DNA of 20,000 nucleotides from an uncultured virus (IMG/VR IMGVR_UViG_3300027808_000022) (IMGVR_UViG_3300027808_000022); one strand, 5' to 3'; positions 1 through 20,000 are shown, numbered from the stretch's first letter. Notes: generated from the letters alone by a model not told the origin. A program made the numbers and translations.

Positions 1-50
1 AATGAGAGCGGGTTTACAATCCGCCGCAATTGCCGCTATGCGATACTGGC
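1..50 (-). tRNA. tRNA-Tyr(GTA), 5' part, truncated by window edge
   Basis: Reverse complement GCCAGTA-TC-GCATAGCGGCAATTGC-G-GCGGA-TTGTAAA-CCCGC; anticodon GTA; T-arm lies outside the window. Confidence 0.85.
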
Positions 51-57
51 ATTTTTG

Positions 58-130
58 TCTTTCCTGTTGGATTTGAACCAACGACATCTTGGATGTAAGC
101 CAAGTGCTCTTCCAACTGAGCTAAGGAAAG
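58..130 (-). tRNA. tRNA-Val(TAC)
   Basis: Cloverleaf: acceptor CTTTCCT/AGGAAAG, D-stem GCTC/GAGC, anticodon arm CTTGG-CTTACAT-CCAAG, T-arm GTTGG-TTCAAAT-CCAAC, discriminator A. Confidence 0.95.
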
Positions 131-136
131 ATATTG

Positions 137-210
137 TGACCCCATCGGGACTCGAACCCGAAACCCCCGTGTTAAAAGCACGGTGCTCTAGCCAATTGAG
201 CTATAAGGTC
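137..210 (-). tRNA. tRNA-Lys(TTT)
   Basis: Acceptor GACCTTA/TGGGGTC, anticodon arm CCGTG-CTTTTAA-CACGG, T-arm TCGGG-TTCGAGT-CCCGA. Confidence 0.95.
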
Positions 211-216
211 ATATTG

Positions 217-287
217 TTACCCCTGAAGGATTCGAACCTCCACTAAGTGGACCAAAACCACTCGTCCTGCCGTTAGACGAAAGGGTA
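217..287 (-). tRNA. tRNA-Gln(TTG)
   Basis: Acceptor TACCCTT/AGGGGTA, anticodon arm AGTGG-TTTTGGT-CCACT, T-arm GGAGG-TTCGAAT-CCTTC. Confidence 0.95.
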
Positions 288-292
288 ATTTA

Positions 293-369
293 TGGTTGGT
301 GATACAGGACTTGAACCTGTGACCCCTACGGTATCAGCGTAGTGCTCTAACCAACTGAGCTAATCACCA
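293..369 (-). tRNA. tRNA-Ile(GAT) with encoded CCA
   Basis: Acceptor TGGTGAT/ATCACCA + ACCA, anticodon arm CTACG-CTGATAC-CGTAG, T-arm ACAGG-TTCAAGT-CCTGT. Confidence 0.95.
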
Positions 370-378
370 ATGTATTTG

Positions 379-451
379 TGGGGTAGACAGGTATCGAACC
401 TGTTCCTTCGGATTTTCAGTCCGGCGCAATGACCTCATCTGCCACTACCCC
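379..451 (-). tRNA. tRNA-Phe(GAA), first gene of the array
   Basis: Acceptor GGGGTAG/CTACCCC, anticodon arm CCGGA-CTGAAAA-TCCGA, T-arm ACAGG-TTCGATA-CCTGT. Confidence 0.93.
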
Positions 452-463
452 ATTTTTGGTTAC

Positions 464-481
464 CAATACGTCAAAGAACTT
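464..481 (-). promoter_or_regulatory. boxA-like antitermination site
   Basis: AAGTTCTTTGACGTATTG between the terminator and tRNA-Phe; core GTTCTTTGAC resembles the rrn boxA consensus GYTCTTTAA/GA. Confidence 0.55.
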
Positions 482-518
482 AAAAACAAAAAAACCCGAA
501 CCTTGTGAGTTCGGGTTT
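482..518 (-). terminator. Intrinsic terminator upstream of the tRNA array (attenuator terminator)
   Basis: AAACCCGAAC-TCACAAG-GTTCGGGTTT followed by TTTTGTTTTT on the minus strand. Confidence 0.9.
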
Positions 519-539
519 CCTTTTTTAGGCTACTACGTG

Positions 540-635
540 TTAACTTATAACACCCGAACTTGAAAATACGCGAAGATACCAATTCTGACAGAATTGAATG
601 ACATGTTTCACGATTTGTTTATTTACGAGTTTCAT
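540..635 (-). CDS. Putative attenuator leader peptide, 31 aa (MKLVNKQIVKHVIQFCQNWYLRVFSSSGVIS)
   Basis: Hand-translated ATG(635)..TAA(540); below the ORF-track cut-off; lies between promoter motifs (646-666) and the terminator; codons 26-28 (AGTTCGGGT) are complementary to the terminator 5' arm. Confidence 0.7.
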   Translation of the reverse strand: MKLVNKQIVKHVIQFCQNWYLRVFSSSGVIS

Positions 636-645
636 TGTGTTTAGT

Positions 646-666
646 ATTAAATATGGTACAAAGATA
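646..666 (-). promoter_or_regulatory. Promoter region of leader/tRNA array: TATCTTTG (659-666) and TATTTAAT (646-653)
   Basis: TATCTTTG fits the Bacteroidota housekeeping -7 element TAnnTTTG; TATTTAAT is a variant of the recurring TATTTAT motif. Confidence 0.65.
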
Positions 667-684
667 CAAAAGTTTCTTGATATG

Positions 685-945
685 TTAAATATTTTTTTCG
701 TTTTTATTTTTTAATAACCAGTTGGCTCCGACTACAAACCCTTGTTTCCATTTTGTAATATCATCATCACACATCCCTTCACTGTATTGTTGATATTTGT
801 CATCAGCGCCAATATGAATCATTTGTTGGATTCTTTTTTCTATAAAACCGGGCTTAGTTTCAAACTCAGGTTCTCCCAATTCAACCATACCATTTTTCCA
901 CTTTTTCCAAGTGTCAAAATCTTTTAAATCTTCAATGTTAATCAT
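685..945 (-). CDS. Hypothetical protein
   Basis: 86 aa ORF co-oriented and tightly packed with neighbours. Confidence 0.75.
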   Translation of the reverse strand: MINIEDLKDFDTWKKWKNGMVELGEPEFETKPGFIEKRIQQMIHIGADDKYQQYSEGMCDDDITKWKQGFVVGANWLLKNKNEKNI

Positions 946-958
946 ATTATTTTTTTAA

Positions 959-1375
959 TTATAACCTGTCTTTTACAATATTCAATAAGTCCTCATTAAA
1001 AGGTACTCCATGTCTTGAATCAAATTCATCTTCCAATCTTTCAGTTGACATATCATTTTTCTTCAATAAAATATACGCTCCCAAATCAGCTTCAATTTCA
1101 TCTTTTTCAGACCTCGGTCCGTTGTGTCCCAATAACAAATGTGAGATTTCATGAGCTTCAATAAATTTCATGTCATCCATAGTTAAACCATCATCACCCA
1201 AAAATATTTCACCGTCAATAAAAATTGTTTTGAATTCTGGTGCAAGAAATCCATAACCGTATTGGTCAAAAATTTTTCTCATTGCACTATAATTTGGATT
1301 TTCTTTGAATACCAAATTAATATTCATGTTTGGGATAAAACTACTTTTGTACGCTATGATGTCTTGGTCTTCCAT
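959..1375 (-). CDS. Zincin-like metallopeptidase domain protein (ImmA/IrrE-like)
   Basis: AHEISHLLLGH (HExxH) followed by EIEAD third-ligand motif. Confidence 0.65.
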   Translation of the reverse strand: MEDQDIIAYKSSFIPNMNINLVFKENPNYSAMRKIFDQYGYGFLAPEFKTIFIDGEIFLGDDGLTMDDMKFIEAHEISHLLLGHNGPRSEKDEIEADLGAYILLKKNDMSTERLEDEFDSRHGVPFNEDLLNIVKDRL

Positions 1376-1377
1376 TT

Positions 1378-1941
1378 TTATAATAAATATTCCAATACTT
1401 TTTCTTTTATGCCCGTTTGTTTAATGCCTTCTTTATTTTCGGGTGTTAATACAAAGTTCTTCAATCCCCAAGTCTTATCGTGCACATCCGTTAATGACAT
1501 ATTCAAATCATCAATTGCCACCCAATGTGTGATTACAGGATTCTGACCAATATATTGCGCAATCTCCAAACTACGAGTTTGTTCTAACTCCGATTTGTTG
1601 TGCCATGGGAAATCATCATAATCATCATATAAGATAGAATCGGTAAAGGCAATTGGTTTTTTAATAATACCTTTTGATTCGTAATATTCTCCCATCTCCT
1701 CAACTGTCGCCCAATTTTTCCAATCTGAAGATACAACAATTTCGGCACCTGTTTCCTCTAAGATTTCATTAAGAACTTTAACCGCCTCCTCATCAAAATT
1801 ATCAAAACGATACTCAACGGGCATACTTAAAGTACTCATAGACAATTTACGTTTACCCCAACTTTTTTGTTTTTTGAAACGATTACCCCAATTATCAGAC
1901 AGACATATCACACCATCGTGGTCCAAAAATATAACTTTCAT
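1378..1941 (-). CDS. HAD-family phosphatase of the Swiss-Army-Knife RNA repair type (HAD_SAK_2-like)
   Basis: MKVIFLDHDGV (DxD), IVVSSDWK and WVAIDD motifs. Confidence 0.8.
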   Translation of the reverse strand: MKVIFLDHDGVICLSDNWGNRFKKQKSWGKRKLSMSTLSMPVEYRFDNFDEEAVKVLNEILEETGAEIVVSSDWKNWATVEEMGEYYESKGIIKKPIAFTDSILYDDYDDFPWHNKSELEQTRSLEIAQYIGQNPVITHWVAIDDLNMSLTDVHDKTWGLKNFVLTPENKEGIKQTGIKEKVLEYLL

Positions 1942-1945
1942 AACA

Positions 1946-1953
1946 CAAAGATA
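1946..1953 (-). promoter_or_regulatory. Bacteroidota-type -7 box TATCTTTG
   Basis: TAnnTTTG match 4 nt upstream of the HAD gene start. Confidence 0.55.
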
Positions 1954-2049
1954 ATAAAAGTTATTCTTGTATCAAAGAAATATCGTAATAAAAACTATTG
2001 TATCATATTTTACAATTTGACAAATATGTTGTATTTTTTTTAAAAAACT

Positions 2050-2766
2050 ATGTCATATTTAAATACACCAATTCCCGTAGTAGAGGCTTACATTAGAGGA
2101 AACTTCTTAAGAAACCAAGAAGATTCTCACGATAAAAAATTCCCTTGTTACATTTTTGGAATGTCGTCAATTCCAGCACAAGCACCATTATTTCACTTTA
2201 TCATGGAGGATGGGGCATTATGGTGGAGAATGCCAATACAGGCATTTTGTTGGAAAGAAGATGCACCTGAACAAGAACTTGATGAATTAGTGTTATGGGA
2301 TTCATTTTCATATCATGTTGGAGCAACAGCATTCCCTATGTTAAAAAACAAGACATGTAAATTCATATCAAGACGTAGAGTAGAATATACGGGCAAATAT
2401 TTATTTACCTTAGATTGGGGGTCATCTTCAGACATGGGAGACACAGATTTTGGATTAAGTGAATTCCCATCACAACACAAATGTGGTCATTTCATTGCCA
2501 TGGATAATGGAAACTTTGCAATACAACCAAACAATAGGTTTGTGCTTCATGACCCATCGTTCACAGTAAAAGATGAATTGGTTATACATAGAAAATACAA
2601 TACCACATTATGGACTGCTGAAAGAAATGGAAGATGGGTCACACCTGATACTGACATTATGAATTACGACCATACCGATTTAGAAAAAGGTGAGAGTAAT
2701 AAAAAACGGTCAGATGAATATAATAAAATTGATTCCGAACGTTTAAAGAATGAAGGTTCAATTTAA
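2050..2766 (+). CDS. Hypothetical protein, phage-like
   Basis: 238 aa ORF, aromatic-rich with HKCGH motif; overlaps the next gene. Confidence 0.8.
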   Translation: MSYLNTPIPVVEAYIRGNFLRNQEDSHDKKFPCYIFGMSSIPAQAPLFHFIMEDGALWWRMPIQAFCWKEDAPEQELDELVLWDSFSYHVGATAFPMLKNKTCKFISRRRVEYTGKYLFTLDWGSSSDMGDTDFGLSEFPSQHKCGHFIAMDNGNFAIQPNNRFVLHDPSFTVKDELVIHRKYNTTLWTAERNGRWVTPDTDIMNYDHTDLEKGESNKKRSDEYNKIDSERLKNEGSI

Positions 2767-3379
2767 CCACCAAAATGGATTCTTTTTAGACGGGAGAATA
2801 TTTTGTGAAGTTTACGGTATTGCGGAAAACGAATCAAATGATGAGTTATTAAATTCAGGATGGTTACCGTCAATGGAGGAAAAAAATATTTGGTATCAAT
2901 CAAGAAGTCATAGAATAGAACTATCTAATTTTGAGATATCAAAAAAACGAAGACACATAATTAAAAAGTTAACCTGTGAAGTAAGTGATTATATTCAAAA
3001 CCAAGAAATAGATGATTTCTTTCAAGAATACTACAATGATAAGGATTTTGATATTATGGATGATTATAATAACTGTTCAAAGTTTTTTGAACCAAAAATA
3101 TTGTACTTAAGATTAGAAGGTAAATTAGTTGCGGTGGGAAGATACTTAGAAAATAAAAAGTCTAATGTATTTTTAAATCTTGCTTATGATAACAATAATT
3201 TAAAGTTATCTCTTGGTACTAATTTATTTTACATACTCGCAGATATTACCAAGAAACAAAATAAAGATTATTTGTATATCTATGAATCATATGATGATAG
3301 TTTTTCATATAAACAAAAATTACCTAACTTAAATTTTTGGAGTGGGACTAAATGGATATCAAATGCTATTTATAAATAA
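2750..3379 (+). CDS. ATE/Bpt-like aminoacyl-tRNA-protein transferase (GNAT fold)
   Basis: LLNSGW..WYQSRSHRIELSNF near N-terminus and AYD..KLSLGT..KDYLYI..SYK near C-terminus match the ATE_N/ATE_C motif pattern of Bpt/ATE1. Confidence 0.65.
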   Translation: MKVQFNHQNGFFLDGRIFCEVYGIAENESNDELLNSGWLPSMEEKNIWYQSRSHRIELSNFEISKKRRHIIKKLTCEVSDYIQNQEIDDFFQEYYNDKDFDIMDDYNNCSKFFEPKILYLRLEGKLVAVGRYLENKKSNVFLNLAYDNNNLKLSLGTNLFYILADITKKQNKDYLYIYESYDDSFSYKQKLPNLNFWSGTKWISNAIYK

Positions 3380-5880: not shown

Positions 5881-5893
5881 AACGTGTTTAGAA

Positions 5894-5922
5894 GGGTCCT
5901 GAGAAATCAGGACTTTTTTTTT
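5894..5922 (+). terminator. Intrinsic terminator upstream of the HNH gene
   Basis: GTCCTGA-GAAA-TCAGGAC followed by 9 T. Confidence 0.9.
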
Positions 5923-5958
5923 ACACATAAATTTCGTAAATTTGTAAAACATATTGTA

Positions 5959-6450
5959 ATGGATAAAGTATTAGTATTAAACTCAGACTACACACCCTTG
6001 AACGTAACTTCGGTTCGTAAGGGATTTGTATTGGTAATAAAAGGAAAGGCTGAGGTATTAAAACAAGACTCACAAAAATTGTCATCATCAGTTAAAGAAT
6101 ATGTTAAACCATTAATAATTCGTTTATTGTCTTATGTTAGATTTAAAACACGAAGTGTACGGTTAAACAGAAAACGTATCTACAAAAGGGATAACAACCA
6201 ATGTGTTTATTGTGGAAGTGAAAAGAATTTAACAATTGACCATATTATACCTCGTTCACGTGGTGGAAAAAACAGTTGGGTTAATTTGGTAACTTGTTGC
6301 TCATATTGTAATTTAAAAAAGGCAAATAAAACACCTGAAGAAGCTAACATGAAAATGAGATACAAAGCGTATGAACCAACTGTATTCTCATCTATTATTA
6401 GTTCTGACGTTGAGTGTTTATGGAATGATTATAAAGAATCATTTGTCTAA
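5959..6450 (+). CDS. HNH endonuclease (VLVLN..Y.PL N-terminal family)
   Basis: RDNNQCVYCG..LTIDHIIPRSRGGKNSWVNLVTCCSYCNLKK; real start MDKVLVLNSDYTPL at 5959. Confidence 0.9.
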   Translation: MDKVLVLNSDYTPLNVTSVRKGFVLVIKGKAEVLKQDSQKLSSSVKEYVKPLIIRLLSYVRFKTRSVRLNRKRIYKRDNNQCVYCGSEKNLTIDHIIPRSRGGKNSWVNLVTCCSYCNLKKANKTPEEANMKMRYKAYEPTVFSSIISSDVECLWNDYKESFV

Positions 6451-6582: not shown

Positions 6583-7260
6583 ATGGATTACGGAAACGAT
6601 TTCAAAAACTACTTTACCAAACACTTAGGTAAAAGTTCACTCAATCTTCATCATTATGATAGACAGATTGAAAATTCAATGACTCCTTACATTTTGGAGG
6701 AAAGGGAAATGAGGGTAACTCAAATGGATATTTTTTCTCGTTTAATGAGAGAAAGACTATTATGGGTTGCTGGACCTGTAAATGACAACATGTCAACCAT
6801 TGTACAAGCTCAGTTAATGTACTTGGACTCGGTTGAGAGTACTGACATCACAATGCACATTGATAGTCCTGGTGGGTCAGTAAAATCAGGTTTGTCTATG
6901 GTTGATGTTATGGATTACATTCGTTGTGATATTCGTACAGTAAACACAGGTATGGCAGCATCAATGGGTTCAGTTCTGTTAGGCGCTGGTACAAAAGGTA
7001 AACGTTCTTCATTACGTTTTTCTCGTACAATGTTACACCAATCATCAGGTGGTTATGAAGGTAACATTCAAGACGCAGAAATTTCAATGAAAGAATGGAA
7101 AAAAATTAACGATGTTCTTTTTGATTTGTTGGGTGGGTATTGCGGTAAAACAACAAAACAAGTTATGAAGGACGCATCTCGTGATTTATGGTTAGATGCT
7201 AAAGAAGCGTTAGAGTACGGAATTATTGATGAAATTGTTGTTAAAAAAGAAAAAAAATAA
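6583..7260 (+). CDS. clpP: ATP-dependent Clp protease proteolytic subunit
   Basis: MDIFSRLMRER, IDSPGGSV, GMAASMGS (catalytic Ser), MLHQ (catalytic His), RDLWLDAKEALEYGIID. Confidence 0.97.
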   Translation: MDYGNDFKNYFTKHLGKSSLNLHHYDRQIENSMTPYILEEREMRVTQMDIFSRLMRERLLWVAGPVNDNMSTIVQAQLMYLDSVESTDITMHIDSPGGSVKSGLSMVDVMDYIRCDIRTVNTGMAASMGSVLLGAGTKGKRSSLRFSRTMLHQSSGGYEGNIQDAEISMKEWKKINDVLFDLLGGYCGKTTKQVMKDASRDLWLDAKEALEYGIIDEIVVKKEKK

Positions 7261-9185: not shown

Positions 9186-10151
9186 TTATAATTCATTAAT
9201 ATCATCAGTTGAAGAATCCGCAACGGGACTTTCTTTTTGACATATTTTATCAATATCAGCATCGGTTACACCATTCTCATAACCATTGGCCTTTAATGCC
9301 GCTTGTGTTAACTTACCGAAATAAATATCATTTCTTCCTGTGTATGAAGTACCTAAACAATTTTGCAATTCTTTAATTCTTGTTGATTTACAACCCTCAA
9401 CATATTTTCCAGTACAAAGTTTGTATGACATTGTGTTGGTAGCTGATGAACTACCACCTTTTTTACCATCTTTAGCCTCAACACCAGCCTTTTCTTGTTC
9501 TTGGGGTGTTAACATTATTTCAGTGTCTTCAATCATACCTGCAATAGGTCTTGTAAACATTTTCCATTCATCAGGACTATCAGTTAAATTGTCTAAAAAT
9601 AGATATAACCCGCCAGCTATTTTCTTGTCTACAGCACATAAATCAGCAATAGTTGGTATTTTTTGTAATTCGGCAGCAATAGTATCTTCATCATCATCCC
9701 AAGTATCTTTAGAATCTTCAATTGCATATGCAATACTTCTAATATCCGATTTTGATAGTTGAGGAACTAACTTTGAAGCTCCTGCGGCACTACATGCACT
9801 CATAATTTTTTTAAAACCATCCGCTCCATTATCATAATTTGCGCTCCAATTAAGTAACACACCAAGACCTAATCCCGCAACAGCACCAACTGCAGTACCA
9901 ACAACAGGAAAAACACTACCAAGGGTTGCACCTGCGGCCGTAGCCGCAGCTATTCCACCACCAGCAGCAGTTGCCCCAAGAATAGCCCCACCTGCACCAC
10001 CAACCAATGTTGTTGGGTCCGATAAATCACCCGCAGTTTGTTCAAAAATTGTTTGTTTATTCTCAGTTAGAGTTTTTTTACTATCATATTTCATTAGTAA
10101 TAACGCTCTTTCTAACGCTTCTTTACCTTCTGATATAATTTGTTGTTTCAT
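9186..10151 (-). CDS. Glycine-zipper protein with C-terminal peptidoglycan-binding-like domain
   Basis: Long Gly/Ala hydrophobic stretch (GGAGGAILGA..PVVGTAVGAVAGLGLG) and GCKSTRIKELQNCLG..DIYFGKLTQAALK. Confidence 0.65.
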   Translation of the reverse strand: MKQQIISEGKEALERALLLMKYDSKKTLTENKQTIFEQTAGDLSDPTTLVGGAGGAILGATAAGGGIAAATAAGATLGSVFPVVGTAVGAVAGLGLGVLLNWSANYDNGADGFKKIMSACSAAGASKLVPQLSKSDIRSIAYAIEDSKDTWDDDEDTIAAELQKIPTIADLCAVDKKIAGGLYLFLDNLTDSPDEWKMFTRPIAGMIEDTEIMLTPQEQEKAGVEAKDGKKGGSSSATNTMSYKLCTGKYVEGCKSTRIKELQNCLGTSYTGRNDIYFGKLTQAALKANGYENGVTDADIDKICQKESPVADSSTDDINEL

Positions 10152-18870: not shown

Positions 18871-19458
18871 TTAAGATTTAATACCCAACTTTTTTCTATA
18901 CTTTGATATATTACACGCCCAATATACAGCTTTGGTTTTGTCATGTTTTGTGTCACATTTGTGACGTACTCTAAAATTTTTCTTTGTTTCGGGCTTGTTA
19001 TTTGGGTCACCAAATTTAACCATTTTAATATCACCACTTGGTTCTTTTACATACACAGCAAATTTCTTTAATTTACCTGAAGTTTTAAATGGCGAATTTA
19101 ATTTAACATTTTTTCCGTTATATTCAGCCTCATTAATAGATTCATCATCCTCTTCTATTAAAAATGGAATATCTAACCAAACTTCATCACCTTCAAACAT
19201 TGCTGTTTTTCCAATATCAGTTTTTAATAACCACTCATCATCTTCACAAAGTTGGACTAACCCATTTTTCCAAAGACCACGTGTTTCATTTATTAACGAA
19301 AAAAACTCATCTGAAAATGGTATAAAAACATTTTCAACTAAAGGCAAATCATATTCTTTGTGATATTTTAATCCTTCTGAGATTTCAACACCTTCTTTTA
19401 TTAGAATACCTTTTTTTGGTAAGTTTTCTTTTAATATATAACGAATAAAATTTTTCAT
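18871..19458 (-). CDS. Phage hypothetical protein with basic C-terminal domain
   Basis: AEYNGKNVKLN..KKFAVYVK..VKFGDP..FRVRHKC..YWAC. Confidence 0.75.
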   Translation of the reverse strand: MKNFIRYILKENLPKKGILIKEGVEISEGLKYHKEYDLPLVENVFIPFSDEFFSLINETRGLWKNGLVQLCEDDEWLLKTDIGKTAMFEGDEVWLDIPFLIEEDDESINEAEYNGKNVKLNSPFKTSGKLKKFAVYVKEPSGDIKMVKFGDPNNKPETKKNFRVRHKCDTKHDKTKAVYWACNISKYRKKLGIKS

Positions 19459-20000
19459 TATTCCGGCCTCAATACAGTTAATGCTTCAGGATATTCTTTA
19501 CTTAAGAATTCTTCATTTTTTCCTTTATATGGTATGTTCTGTAAAACATATCTTATTGAATTTAATCCTGACACTCTTTTATCTGACGAATCTAAAATAA
19601 CCCAAGGATGGTTTACCGTTGATGTCCTATCAAATAGTTTTTCTTTGAATTCAGTAAATCTATCCCATAAATCTAACATCTTTTCATCATTAGGTGAATA
19701 TTTCCATTTCTTTAATGGTGAACTTAATCTTTGTTTGAATCTTTTTCCCATGGTTTCTTTATCAATTGAGAACCAAAGTTTGAAAAGGAAATCTCCATTT
19801 TCTACTAGTGAATTTTCAAAGTTCTCAACGTTTTCCATAAAGTCTTCATATTCTTCAGGAGTACCATAACCAGCAACAGGTTCAACTAAACCTCTGTTGT
19901 ACCAACTTCTATCAAATAAATTGATTTTACCTGGTTCAATTTGTTTTCTATATCTACCCCACCAATCAGCTCTATCATCAGGTGTTGGAATTCCAAGTTG
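19458..20000 (-). CDS. ppk2: Polyphosphate kinase 2, 5' truncated by window edge
   Basis: Frame open to 20000: QLGIPT..LFDRSWYNRGLVEPVAGY..KLWFSIDKE..PLKKWKYSPND. Confidence 0.93.
   Translation of the reverse strand, partial: QLGIPTPDDRADWWGRYRKQIEPGKINLFDRSWYNRGLVEPVAGYGTPEEYEDFMENVENFENSLVENGDFLFKLWFSIDKETMGKRFKQRLSSPLKKWKYSPNDEKMLDLWDRFTEFKEKLFDRTSTVNHPWVILDSSDKRVSGLNSIRYVLQNIPYKGKNEEFLSKEYPEALTVLRPE

Follow-up and report, generated by a model that had tools for sequence, protein, structure and literature searches.

In enterobacteria, the multivalent attenuators trpL, hisL, thrL (Thr/Ile) and ilvL (Ile/Leu/Val) carry a promoter-proximal open reading frame (ORF) rich in regulatory codons, followed by a terminator whose 5' arm has an alternative upstream partner, and a stalled ribosome selects the antiterminator. 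Genes of the translation apparatus are also controlled by the supply of charged tRNA: the pheST leader, pheM, responds to a single amino acid and has a synthetase as its target, and the T-box binds one uncharged tRNA without a ribosome. The regulation of tRNA genes is much less studied, and the role of the tRNA genes of phages is debated between the matching of codon usage and the replacement of tRNAs destroyed by host defence. In Anabaena sp. PCC 7120, the trn operon (L-array, 26 tRNA genes) is induced under translational stress, according to the passages of PMC8421152 and PMC10272220 that deal with it. Here we describe a 20,000-nucleotide (nt) stretch of DNA, referred to as the window, from an uncultured virus (IMGVR_UViG_3300027808_000022), in which a tRNA array is preceded by a short leader ORF and an intrinsic terminator. 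Judging from the sequence and its relatives, we consider it likely that these elements form a ribosome-mediated leader-peptide transcription attenuator gating a 12-gene phage tRNA array.

Taken from the reverse strand of a 117.6-kb virus record with a CheckV completeness of 39%, the window corresponds to bases 14008-34007, and all features of the cassette were taken from its minus strand. The leader ORF (540..635) consists of 31 codons followed by TAA, encodes the peptide MKLVNKQIVKHVIQFCQNWYLRVFSSSGVIS, and was recovered by ORF calling at exactly the coordinates given in an initial annotation of this DNA (635-540). Codons 26-28 hold the putative antiterminator arm AGTTCGGGT (552..560), which is the exact reverse complement of positions 516-508 and ends 9 nt ahead of the stop codon, as that annotation had also claimed. 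These positions form the 5' arm (ACCCGAACT) of an intrinsic terminator (482..522) whose 3' arm, GGTTCGGGT, occupies 502-494 and is followed by T7-G-T5 down to 482; the strong terminator originally proposed at 518-482 is borne out by a terminator-scan call at 522-488 with 15 pairs plus the T-run, and the fold of the whole region has a z-score of -2.42. A boxA-like 20-mer, GTTCTTTGACGTATTGGTAA (460..479), is located 8 nt 5' of tRNA-Phe. Upstream of the leader, a promoter-like site of the Bacteroidota type (659..689), for which the consensus is TTTG / TAnnTTTG, is composed of TTTA (689-686), 19 nt and TATCTTTG (666-659), and overlaps the stop codon of the upstream gene (687-685); a sigma-70 scan lists TTAACA-16-TATCTT at 688-661. 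Within the span previously assigned to promoter motifs (646-666), TATCTTTG is recognizable, with TTTA upstream of it, and the rest is not.

This arrangement is closest in logic to the multivalent enterobacterial attenuators and closest in function to the Anabaena trn array. With the former it shares the promoter-proximal ORF rich in regulatory codons and the terminator 5' arm with an alternative upstream partner. It differs from them in being virus-encoded, in having tRNAs instead of biosynthetic enzymes as its output, and in carrying no run of a single codon, since the leader reads as a roll-call of 12 isotypes, each present 1-4 times. As in the pheST leader and the T-box, translation-apparatus genes would be controlled by charged-tRNA supply, and here the output is the tRNA genes themselves rather than a synthetase. 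An Rfam scan of window positions 1-3000 (E up to 10) detected no T-box match and no known leader or small RNA at threshold; the Thr_leader model, whose gathering score is 55, reached 25.7 bits at 485-550, a match that reflects the terminator only and does not place the element in that family. Like the Anabaena operon, as far as the passages cited above describe it, the viral locus would be a spare tRNA array that is silent in healthy translation and switched on when translation is impaired; in Anabaena, direct repeats and the repressor TrcR exert control at the promoter, in a cellular setting and with no codon-level match, and the strings 'leader' and 'attenuat' occur 0 times in PMC8421152 and PMC10272220.

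The leader codons correspond to the downstream tRNA genes. A tRNA scan placed tRNA-Phe (451-378), tRNA-Ile (369-293), tRNA-Gln (287-216), tRNA-Lys (210-136), tRNA-Val (130-57) and tRNA-Tyr (50-1) on the minus strand 3' of the terminator, in the order initially annotated, the last being cut by the window edge and confirmed on the full contig. In the tally first made for codons 2-24, which proved correct, 15 of the 23 codons encode these six amino acids (K3 V4 Q3 I2 F2 Y1) and the remainder encode L2 N2 H C W R; a check set beforehand was to look for Asn, His, Cys, Trp, Leu and Arg tRNAs in the unseen part of the array. ARAGORN, run on the whole contig, found exactly those six beyond the window (contig positions 34102-34576), giving the full array Phe Ile Gln Lys Val Tyr Cys His Arg(ACG) Trp Leu(TAG) Asn, that is, 12 tRNAs. 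The 23 sensor codons (2-24, positions 564..632) hence use the 12 amino acids of the array (K L V N Q I H F C W Y R) and no others. When codon 25 is included, 23 of 24 codons match the array at both the amino-acid and the codon level, covering 12/12 isotypes, and the array anticodons can read those 23. The agreement extends to isoacceptors: the Leu codons CTC/CTT fit the array tRNA-Leu(TAG) and not the separate Leu(TAA) of the phage, the Arg codon CGC fits the array Arg(ACG) and not the phage Arg(TCT), and the Ile codons ATC/ATT fit the array Ile(GAT). Across the 117.6-kb contig, three of 393 short ATG ORFs stay within the 12-amino-acid set and two cover all 12, the leader being the sole ORF to do both, and none of the 29,391 23-residue windows of long ORFs falls within the set; the joint probability of the leader composition, calculated from proteome composition, is ~3e-8.

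The leader also has the potential to interfere with its own terminator. The duplex between the arm and the terminator has an energy of -15.5 kcal/mol in the window, which was reached by 1/2000 shuffled ORFs, and in the minimum free energy (MFE) structure of a transcript cut ahead of the 3' arm, positions 560-552 pair with the terminator 5' arm. Similar truncated transcripts were folded for 11 leaders including the relatives described below, and in 11/11 the terminator 5' arm pairs with the 3' part of the ORF; an intrinsic terminator separates leader and regulated genes in all 11 as well. The best duplex between ORF and terminator falls within codons 19-29 in 10/11 leaders (-9.8 to -16.9 kcal/mol), being poor in the one designated type F. 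Shuffled ORFs attained the observed energy in 1/2000 cases for each of types B, G and E2, in 7/2000 for type E and in 21/2000 for type D. Additionally, the arm sequences differ between types, and the pairing of each ORF with its own terminator ranked first among 40,320 permutations. The MFE and centroid folds also contain a hairpin inside the ORF, CAATTC-TGTCA-GAATTG (codons 14-19, 580..596), both arms of which are retained in a variant with an altered loop (A2, see below); it is possibly a pause site for RNA polymerase.

The cassette is not confined to this virus. Searching viral contigs for the 20-mer retrieved 33 loci, and reading of their upstream regions revealed the same organization in 31/33, namely a promoter-like box, a short ORF and a terminator with a 5' arm that can pair with the 3' part of that ORF; the remaining two loci, L029 and L030, lack the combination of short ORF and terminator. 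A TAnnTTT[GA] box lies 29-45 nt 5' of the ATG in 9/11 leaders, often followed by ATATTTAAT. The related leaders start with MK (MM in one type and MI in one variant), and they fall into at least seven types with differing sequences, of which five match their own arrays strongly. Alongside type A, the leader of the window, these are exemplified by type C (L042; 21/23 codons, 13/13 isotypes), type C2 (L053; 22/24 codons, 13/13 isotypes), type D (L043; 19/24 codons, 10/10 isotypes), type E2 (L044; 17/19 codons, 7/7 isotypes) and type G, which was found without using the 20-mer upstream of the second array of L043 (15/18 codons, 10/11 isotypes). Thus, the check on relatives proposed in the initial annotation turned out in its favor, since both the short ORF and the complementarity between antiterminator and terminator recur with different sequences. 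Leaders G and D, which belong to one phage, divide the amino acids between them as their arrays do, and even the Ser codons follow the isoacceptor, with AGT/AGC accompanying Ser(GCT) in G and TCG accompanying Ser(TGA) in D. When arrays were permuted among seven leaders, the codon-level score was reached by the true pairing only (1/5040), and at the amino-acid level 3/5040 permutations reached the observed score.

Single gains and losses of tRNA genes are mirrored in the leaders (match scores of variants A2, A3, D2 and G2 were counted by hand). In variant A2 (L054), an additional tRNA-Ser(TGA) lies between His and Arg in the array, and the sensor region of the leader differs from that of type A by one amino-acid change, codon 17 CAG (Gln) to TCG (Ser), so that 24/24 codons and 13/13 isotypes are matched. 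Type C2 has no tRNA-Ala and possesses tRNA-Ser(GCT); Ala codons, of which type C has three, are absent from its leader, which gains AGT. In D2, the outsider N3 is replaced by the array member T (20/24), and in G2 the outsider T3 is replaced by the array member I (16/18). The frame and length of the ORF are retained in all variants, A2 and A3 included, and six type-C variants have 32 codons each with 18 variable codon columns. One apparent discrepancy, the array of L046 lacking tRNA-Met while its leader keeps Met codons, was dismissed on finding a tRNA-Met homolog identical at 70/73 aligned positions that ARAGORN had missed, which indicates that some arrays may be under-called. Taken with the codon match and the recurrence, this co-variation supports the initial reading of the leader as a putative broad sensor of tRNA shortage that controls the array.

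The 20-mer between terminator and array has features of its own. Exactly two copies exist in the contig, each heading a tRNA array (window 460-479 and G000:C1:40466-40485), and among the loci retrieved it is strictly conserved directly ahead of the first tRNA and is also found between tRNAs. The boxA consensus is UGCUCUUUAACA in E. coli and AUGAUCUUUGAAA in B. subtilis, and boxA is situated upstream of 16S and 23S, as far as the relevant part of PMC13753749 reports; in the portions of the boxA literature available, no consensus for Bacteroidota was found. The 20-mer begins with GUUCUUUGAC, having the UCUUU core in common, and its first ten bases, GTTCTTTGAC, resemble boxA. In bacterial genomes, the exact 20-mer is present at four places: the 16S-23S spacer of Cryomorpha ignava, directly ahead of 23S, a small contig of a Bacteroidota metagenome-assembled genome, and two stretches of gammaproteobacterial coding DNA, as many as chance alone would give. 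Among 61 sampled genomes of the order Flavobacteriales, 8 have it at <=2 mismatches, with 0 hits for a control pattern, and 8 of its 12 sites fall between the spacer tRNAs and the 5' end of 23S (rRNA-operon sites used in the comparison: L059, L062, L068, L070, L071, L074-L077). Both a consensus-like sequence and an rRNA-operon position are thereby documented. Two other identities were considered and discarded: a canonical promoter, given the lack of the TA of a -7 box and of a -33 element at the right spacing together with the match to the pre-23S spacer, and an rRNA-like processing stem, given that no complement of >=9 nt occurs downstream of either array. The element resembles the boxA of rrn operons, which is bound by NusB-S10, in its sequence, its pre-23S match and its position at the head of a long untranslated stable-RNA operon, and differs from it in being phage-borne and downstream of an attenuator, with NusB/S10 binding being putative. 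We infer that it would function as an antitermination signal borrowed from host rRNA operons, in which case it acts on RNA that must originate upstream; as judged from sequence, it points to a Flavobacteriales-like host and to the use of the host rRNA antitermination machinery.

Together, these observations suggest the following course of events, in which the sign and timing of the switch are inferred. Transcription would begin at the promoter-like site near 666-659 and enter the 31-codon leader. If any sensor codon is decoded slowly, the ribosome would lag behind RNA polymerase and leave the arm at 560-552 bare, so that it could pair with the emerging 5' arm (516-508), block the hairpin and let the polymerase read on; the boxA-like site at 479-460 would then probably recruit the host NusB/S10 complex for the passage across ~1 kb of tRNA genes, which are not translated. 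With rapid decoding of all 12 codon families, the ribosome would be on or just past the arm as the terminator is made, the local hairpin would win, and transcription would end near 482. The net outcome would be a closed-loop control by the decoding rate of the array's own codons, being ON if any of the tRNAs is short and OFF if all are plentiful. In broader terms, we lean, with modest confidence, toward a modular cassette in which a shared promoter is combined with a roll-call leader that has at least one codon per tRNA of its block, with an attenuator and with a boxA copied from host rRNA operons, and which would be general for the tRNA arrays of a broad group of large phages infecting freshwater Bacteroidota, with a leader co-evolving with the gain and loss of single tRNAs and a closed loop for each block that detects tRNA depletion, including that caused by host tRNA-cleaving defences. 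A specific link to host anticodon nucleases is speculation.

Several observations weigh against this interpretation and have to be set beside the rival explanations. The leader of type B, which heads the second array of the phage in the window, matches 4/18 codons (10/18 with the downstream Thr, Ile(TAT) and Met) and 4/5 isotypes, and type F (L045) matches 6/14 codons and 5/10 isotypes; in array B gaps and in a 700-nt tRNA-like stretch of type F, cmscan detected no extra tRNAs. Taken singly, the complementarity between ORF and terminator is weak in type C, where 136/2000 shuffled ORFs reached the observed energy, and in type F2 (141/2000). The leader types have shared ancestry, as seen in the CQ-WY-R common to A and C, which means that the permutation tests overstate independence. 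On the 7-kb contig L084 (1380-1861), a type-A leader is followed only by Phe, Ile and Gln, a variant boxA-like site, an ORF of ~100 codons and tRNA-Glu, lowering the hand-counted match to 7/24 codons; this cut-down array possibly stems from a recent rearrangement or an assembly error, and because the contig diverges from the phage in the window exactly at the boxA-like site, such sites may be recombination points between arrays. Translation of the leader ORF is a prediction from its sequence. As for transcription, contigs from four metatranscriptome runs (22 runs listed) were compared with window positions 1-1400, and those from three runs cover the leader region (545-769, 533-685 and, from a variant strain, 465-682), which says only that this region occurs in RNA libraries. 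The variant-strain contig extends 17 letters beyond the T-run, short of the 31-letter rule, and was not counted as bridging the terminator, and no RNA contig from the four runs lies on the tRNAs within those positions; as these contigs give no ends, strand or level, they neither support nor refute termination or read-through, and their weight is limited.

Among the rivals, a translated and codon-matched leader acting through Rho or RNA stability survives best, although we regard it as unlikely; under this explanation the sign could even be opposite, with plentiful tRNAs leading to more of the array. It draws on the departures from the trp/his geometry that the initial annotation had assigned to the locus. 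The arm complementary to the terminator 5' arm stands, while masking of that arm at the stop codon does not hold generally: across leaders, the distance from arm end to stop codon ranges over 0-20 nt, with the terminator 5' arm beginning 24-38 nt past the stop, and the arms of types G and E2 terminate 16-20 nt upstream of the stop codon, out of reach of a ribosome parked there, which precludes masking by such a ribosome as a general geometry. Moreover, the folds contain no anti-antiterminator (1:2) pairing, as initially remarked, and the sole local hairpin, at 596-580, excludes the arm. Of the components of a classical attenuator, the short ORF, the terminator, the alternative antiterminator helix and the regulatory codons matching the regulated product (weakly in types B and F) are hence present and the 1:2 pairing is absent, which implies that the default without translation would be ON (read-through), in contrast to trp and his; the placement of the antiterminator arm inside the ORF is a further difference from the enterobacterial attenuators. 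The boxA-like anti-Rho element 3' of the terminator also makes Rho plausibly relevant to this transcript. Against an action through Rho or stability speak the strong intrinsic terminator conserved in every leader folded and the ORF segment complementary to its 5' arm, which is conserved and co-varies across types and for which a purely Rho- or decay-based mechanism has no need.

We consider it very unlikely that an ordinary terminator simply ends the upstream operon (genes 1941-685), with a chance or unrelated ORF, an array promoter in or near the 20-mer and an incidental codon match. The upstream genes, lying on the same strand, do need a terminator; the strict conservation of the 20-mer directly before the first tRNA would suit a promoter there; and TAnnTTTG boxes are frequent in this AT-rich DNA, the motif alone being found 43 times against 34.5 expected in the window and therefore not enriched, which lessens the value of the box assigned to the leader. 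The second array also speaks for this explanation. In this type B cassette (G000:C1:40272-41205, L002), the last codons (GAGATGGG) of the leader MKTIFIFGTPATEADTSKVEMG pair with its terminator arm, and the leader terminator is followed by a canonical TTTG-N20-TAACTTTG, the 20-mer, and then tRNAs Glu Met Gly Gly Asp Pro; with a promoter past the terminator, the type B array need not depend on read-through. In the window itself, promoter scans called no canonical promoter between terminator and tRNA-Phe (482-452), where a separate one had been named initially as grounds for abandoning the attenuator, and the T-run and first tRNA of types G, C2 and F are separated by only ~14-20 nt, too little to accommodate a promoter, so those arrays are reachable only through the terminator. 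Furthermore, the 20-mer has neither the -7 TA nor a properly spaced -33 element, occurs between tRNAs as well, and matches the spacer upstream of 23S rather than a promoter, while the codon match is far beyond chance and follows tRNA gain and loss in relatives. That the short ORFs are instead a family of functional micro-proteins with a merely array-like composition is extremely improbable, for although motifs are common across types (the MK start; CQ-WY or S-W near the middle), composition is retained and sequence is not, the peptides of A, B, D and G being unrelated yet each fitting its own array, non-synonymous changes mostly exchange array amino acids or neighbors (A-V to V-A; P-R to R-H), and the RNA arm determines which residues stand at the C-terminus.

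The arrays and their surroundings display further peculiarities. At G000:C1:35126-35355, after the protein gene that follows array A, there are a further tRNA-Phe(GAA) and an unusual tRNA-like gene, for which ARAGORN gives the two-base anticodon '(ta)'. The tRNA-like stretch of the type F locus (L045, reverse-oriented, 9427-10120) spans ~700 nt between tRNA-Pro and tRNA-Tyr and contains about five tRNA-like units with GGTTCGAATCC-type T-arms, which neither ARAGORN nor the Rfam model called as tRNA, as well as a 20-mer copy with 1 mismatch. Within array G (L043, 2787-3420), an ORF of ~190 amino acids with Cys/His motifs, HNH-like by eye, sits between tRNA-Asn and tRNA-Tyr, an insert absent from the relative L056 (1763-1830). 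In the 362-kb complete phage record of type E2 (L044, 3672-3968), ~290 nt of GC-richer and apparently structured sequence separate the leader terminator from the 20-mer. A few hundred nt 5' of the type-C leader, several contigs carry a tRNA with a CTA anticodon (amber-reading; labeled Pyl by ARAGORN), found at ~1165 in L006, L011, L013, L018, L025 and L032 and at 1811-1885 in L042, possibly reflecting reassignment or suppression of TAG.

In the genomic neighborhood, two genes upstream of the leader (window 1378-1941, minus strand), a 187-amino-acid protein contains the HAD domain known from 'Swiss Army Knife' RNA-repair proteins, HAD_SAK_2 (PF18143, E = 2.9e-20), a weak contextual hint of conflict over RNA that does not constitute evidence for the nuclease idea. 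Elsewhere in the window, we observed an HNH endonuclease adjoining tRNA-Leu(TAA) (5884-6450, plus strand), a ClpP-family protease (6583-7260, plus strand; E = 2.7e-56) and a fragment of polyphosphate kinase 2 (19458-19838, minus strand). Comparison of window positions 1-3000 with a phage database of 50,697 records yielded tRNA-level or weak matches only and no cultured relative.

Full-text searches, within the parts of the literature they covered, returned no paper in which tRNA genes or phage tRNA arrays are controlled by a leader peptide or attenuator, in keeping with the initial remark that no such attenuator is described. If the interpretation as an attenuator is true, the element would be the first known case of tRNA genes under a leader-peptide attenuator and the most multivalent attenuator known, reading 12-13 tRNA supplies at once with the same tRNAs as its output. 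The design is that of a compact multi-tRNA sensor, in which the leaders predict array content. The boxA copy, if its assignment is true, would mean that the host rRNA transcription machinery is borrowed for phage stable RNAs. The system would also be a direct sign that phages regulate their tRNA supply on demand and not constitutively, and the question of when phage tRNAs are needed would become testable.

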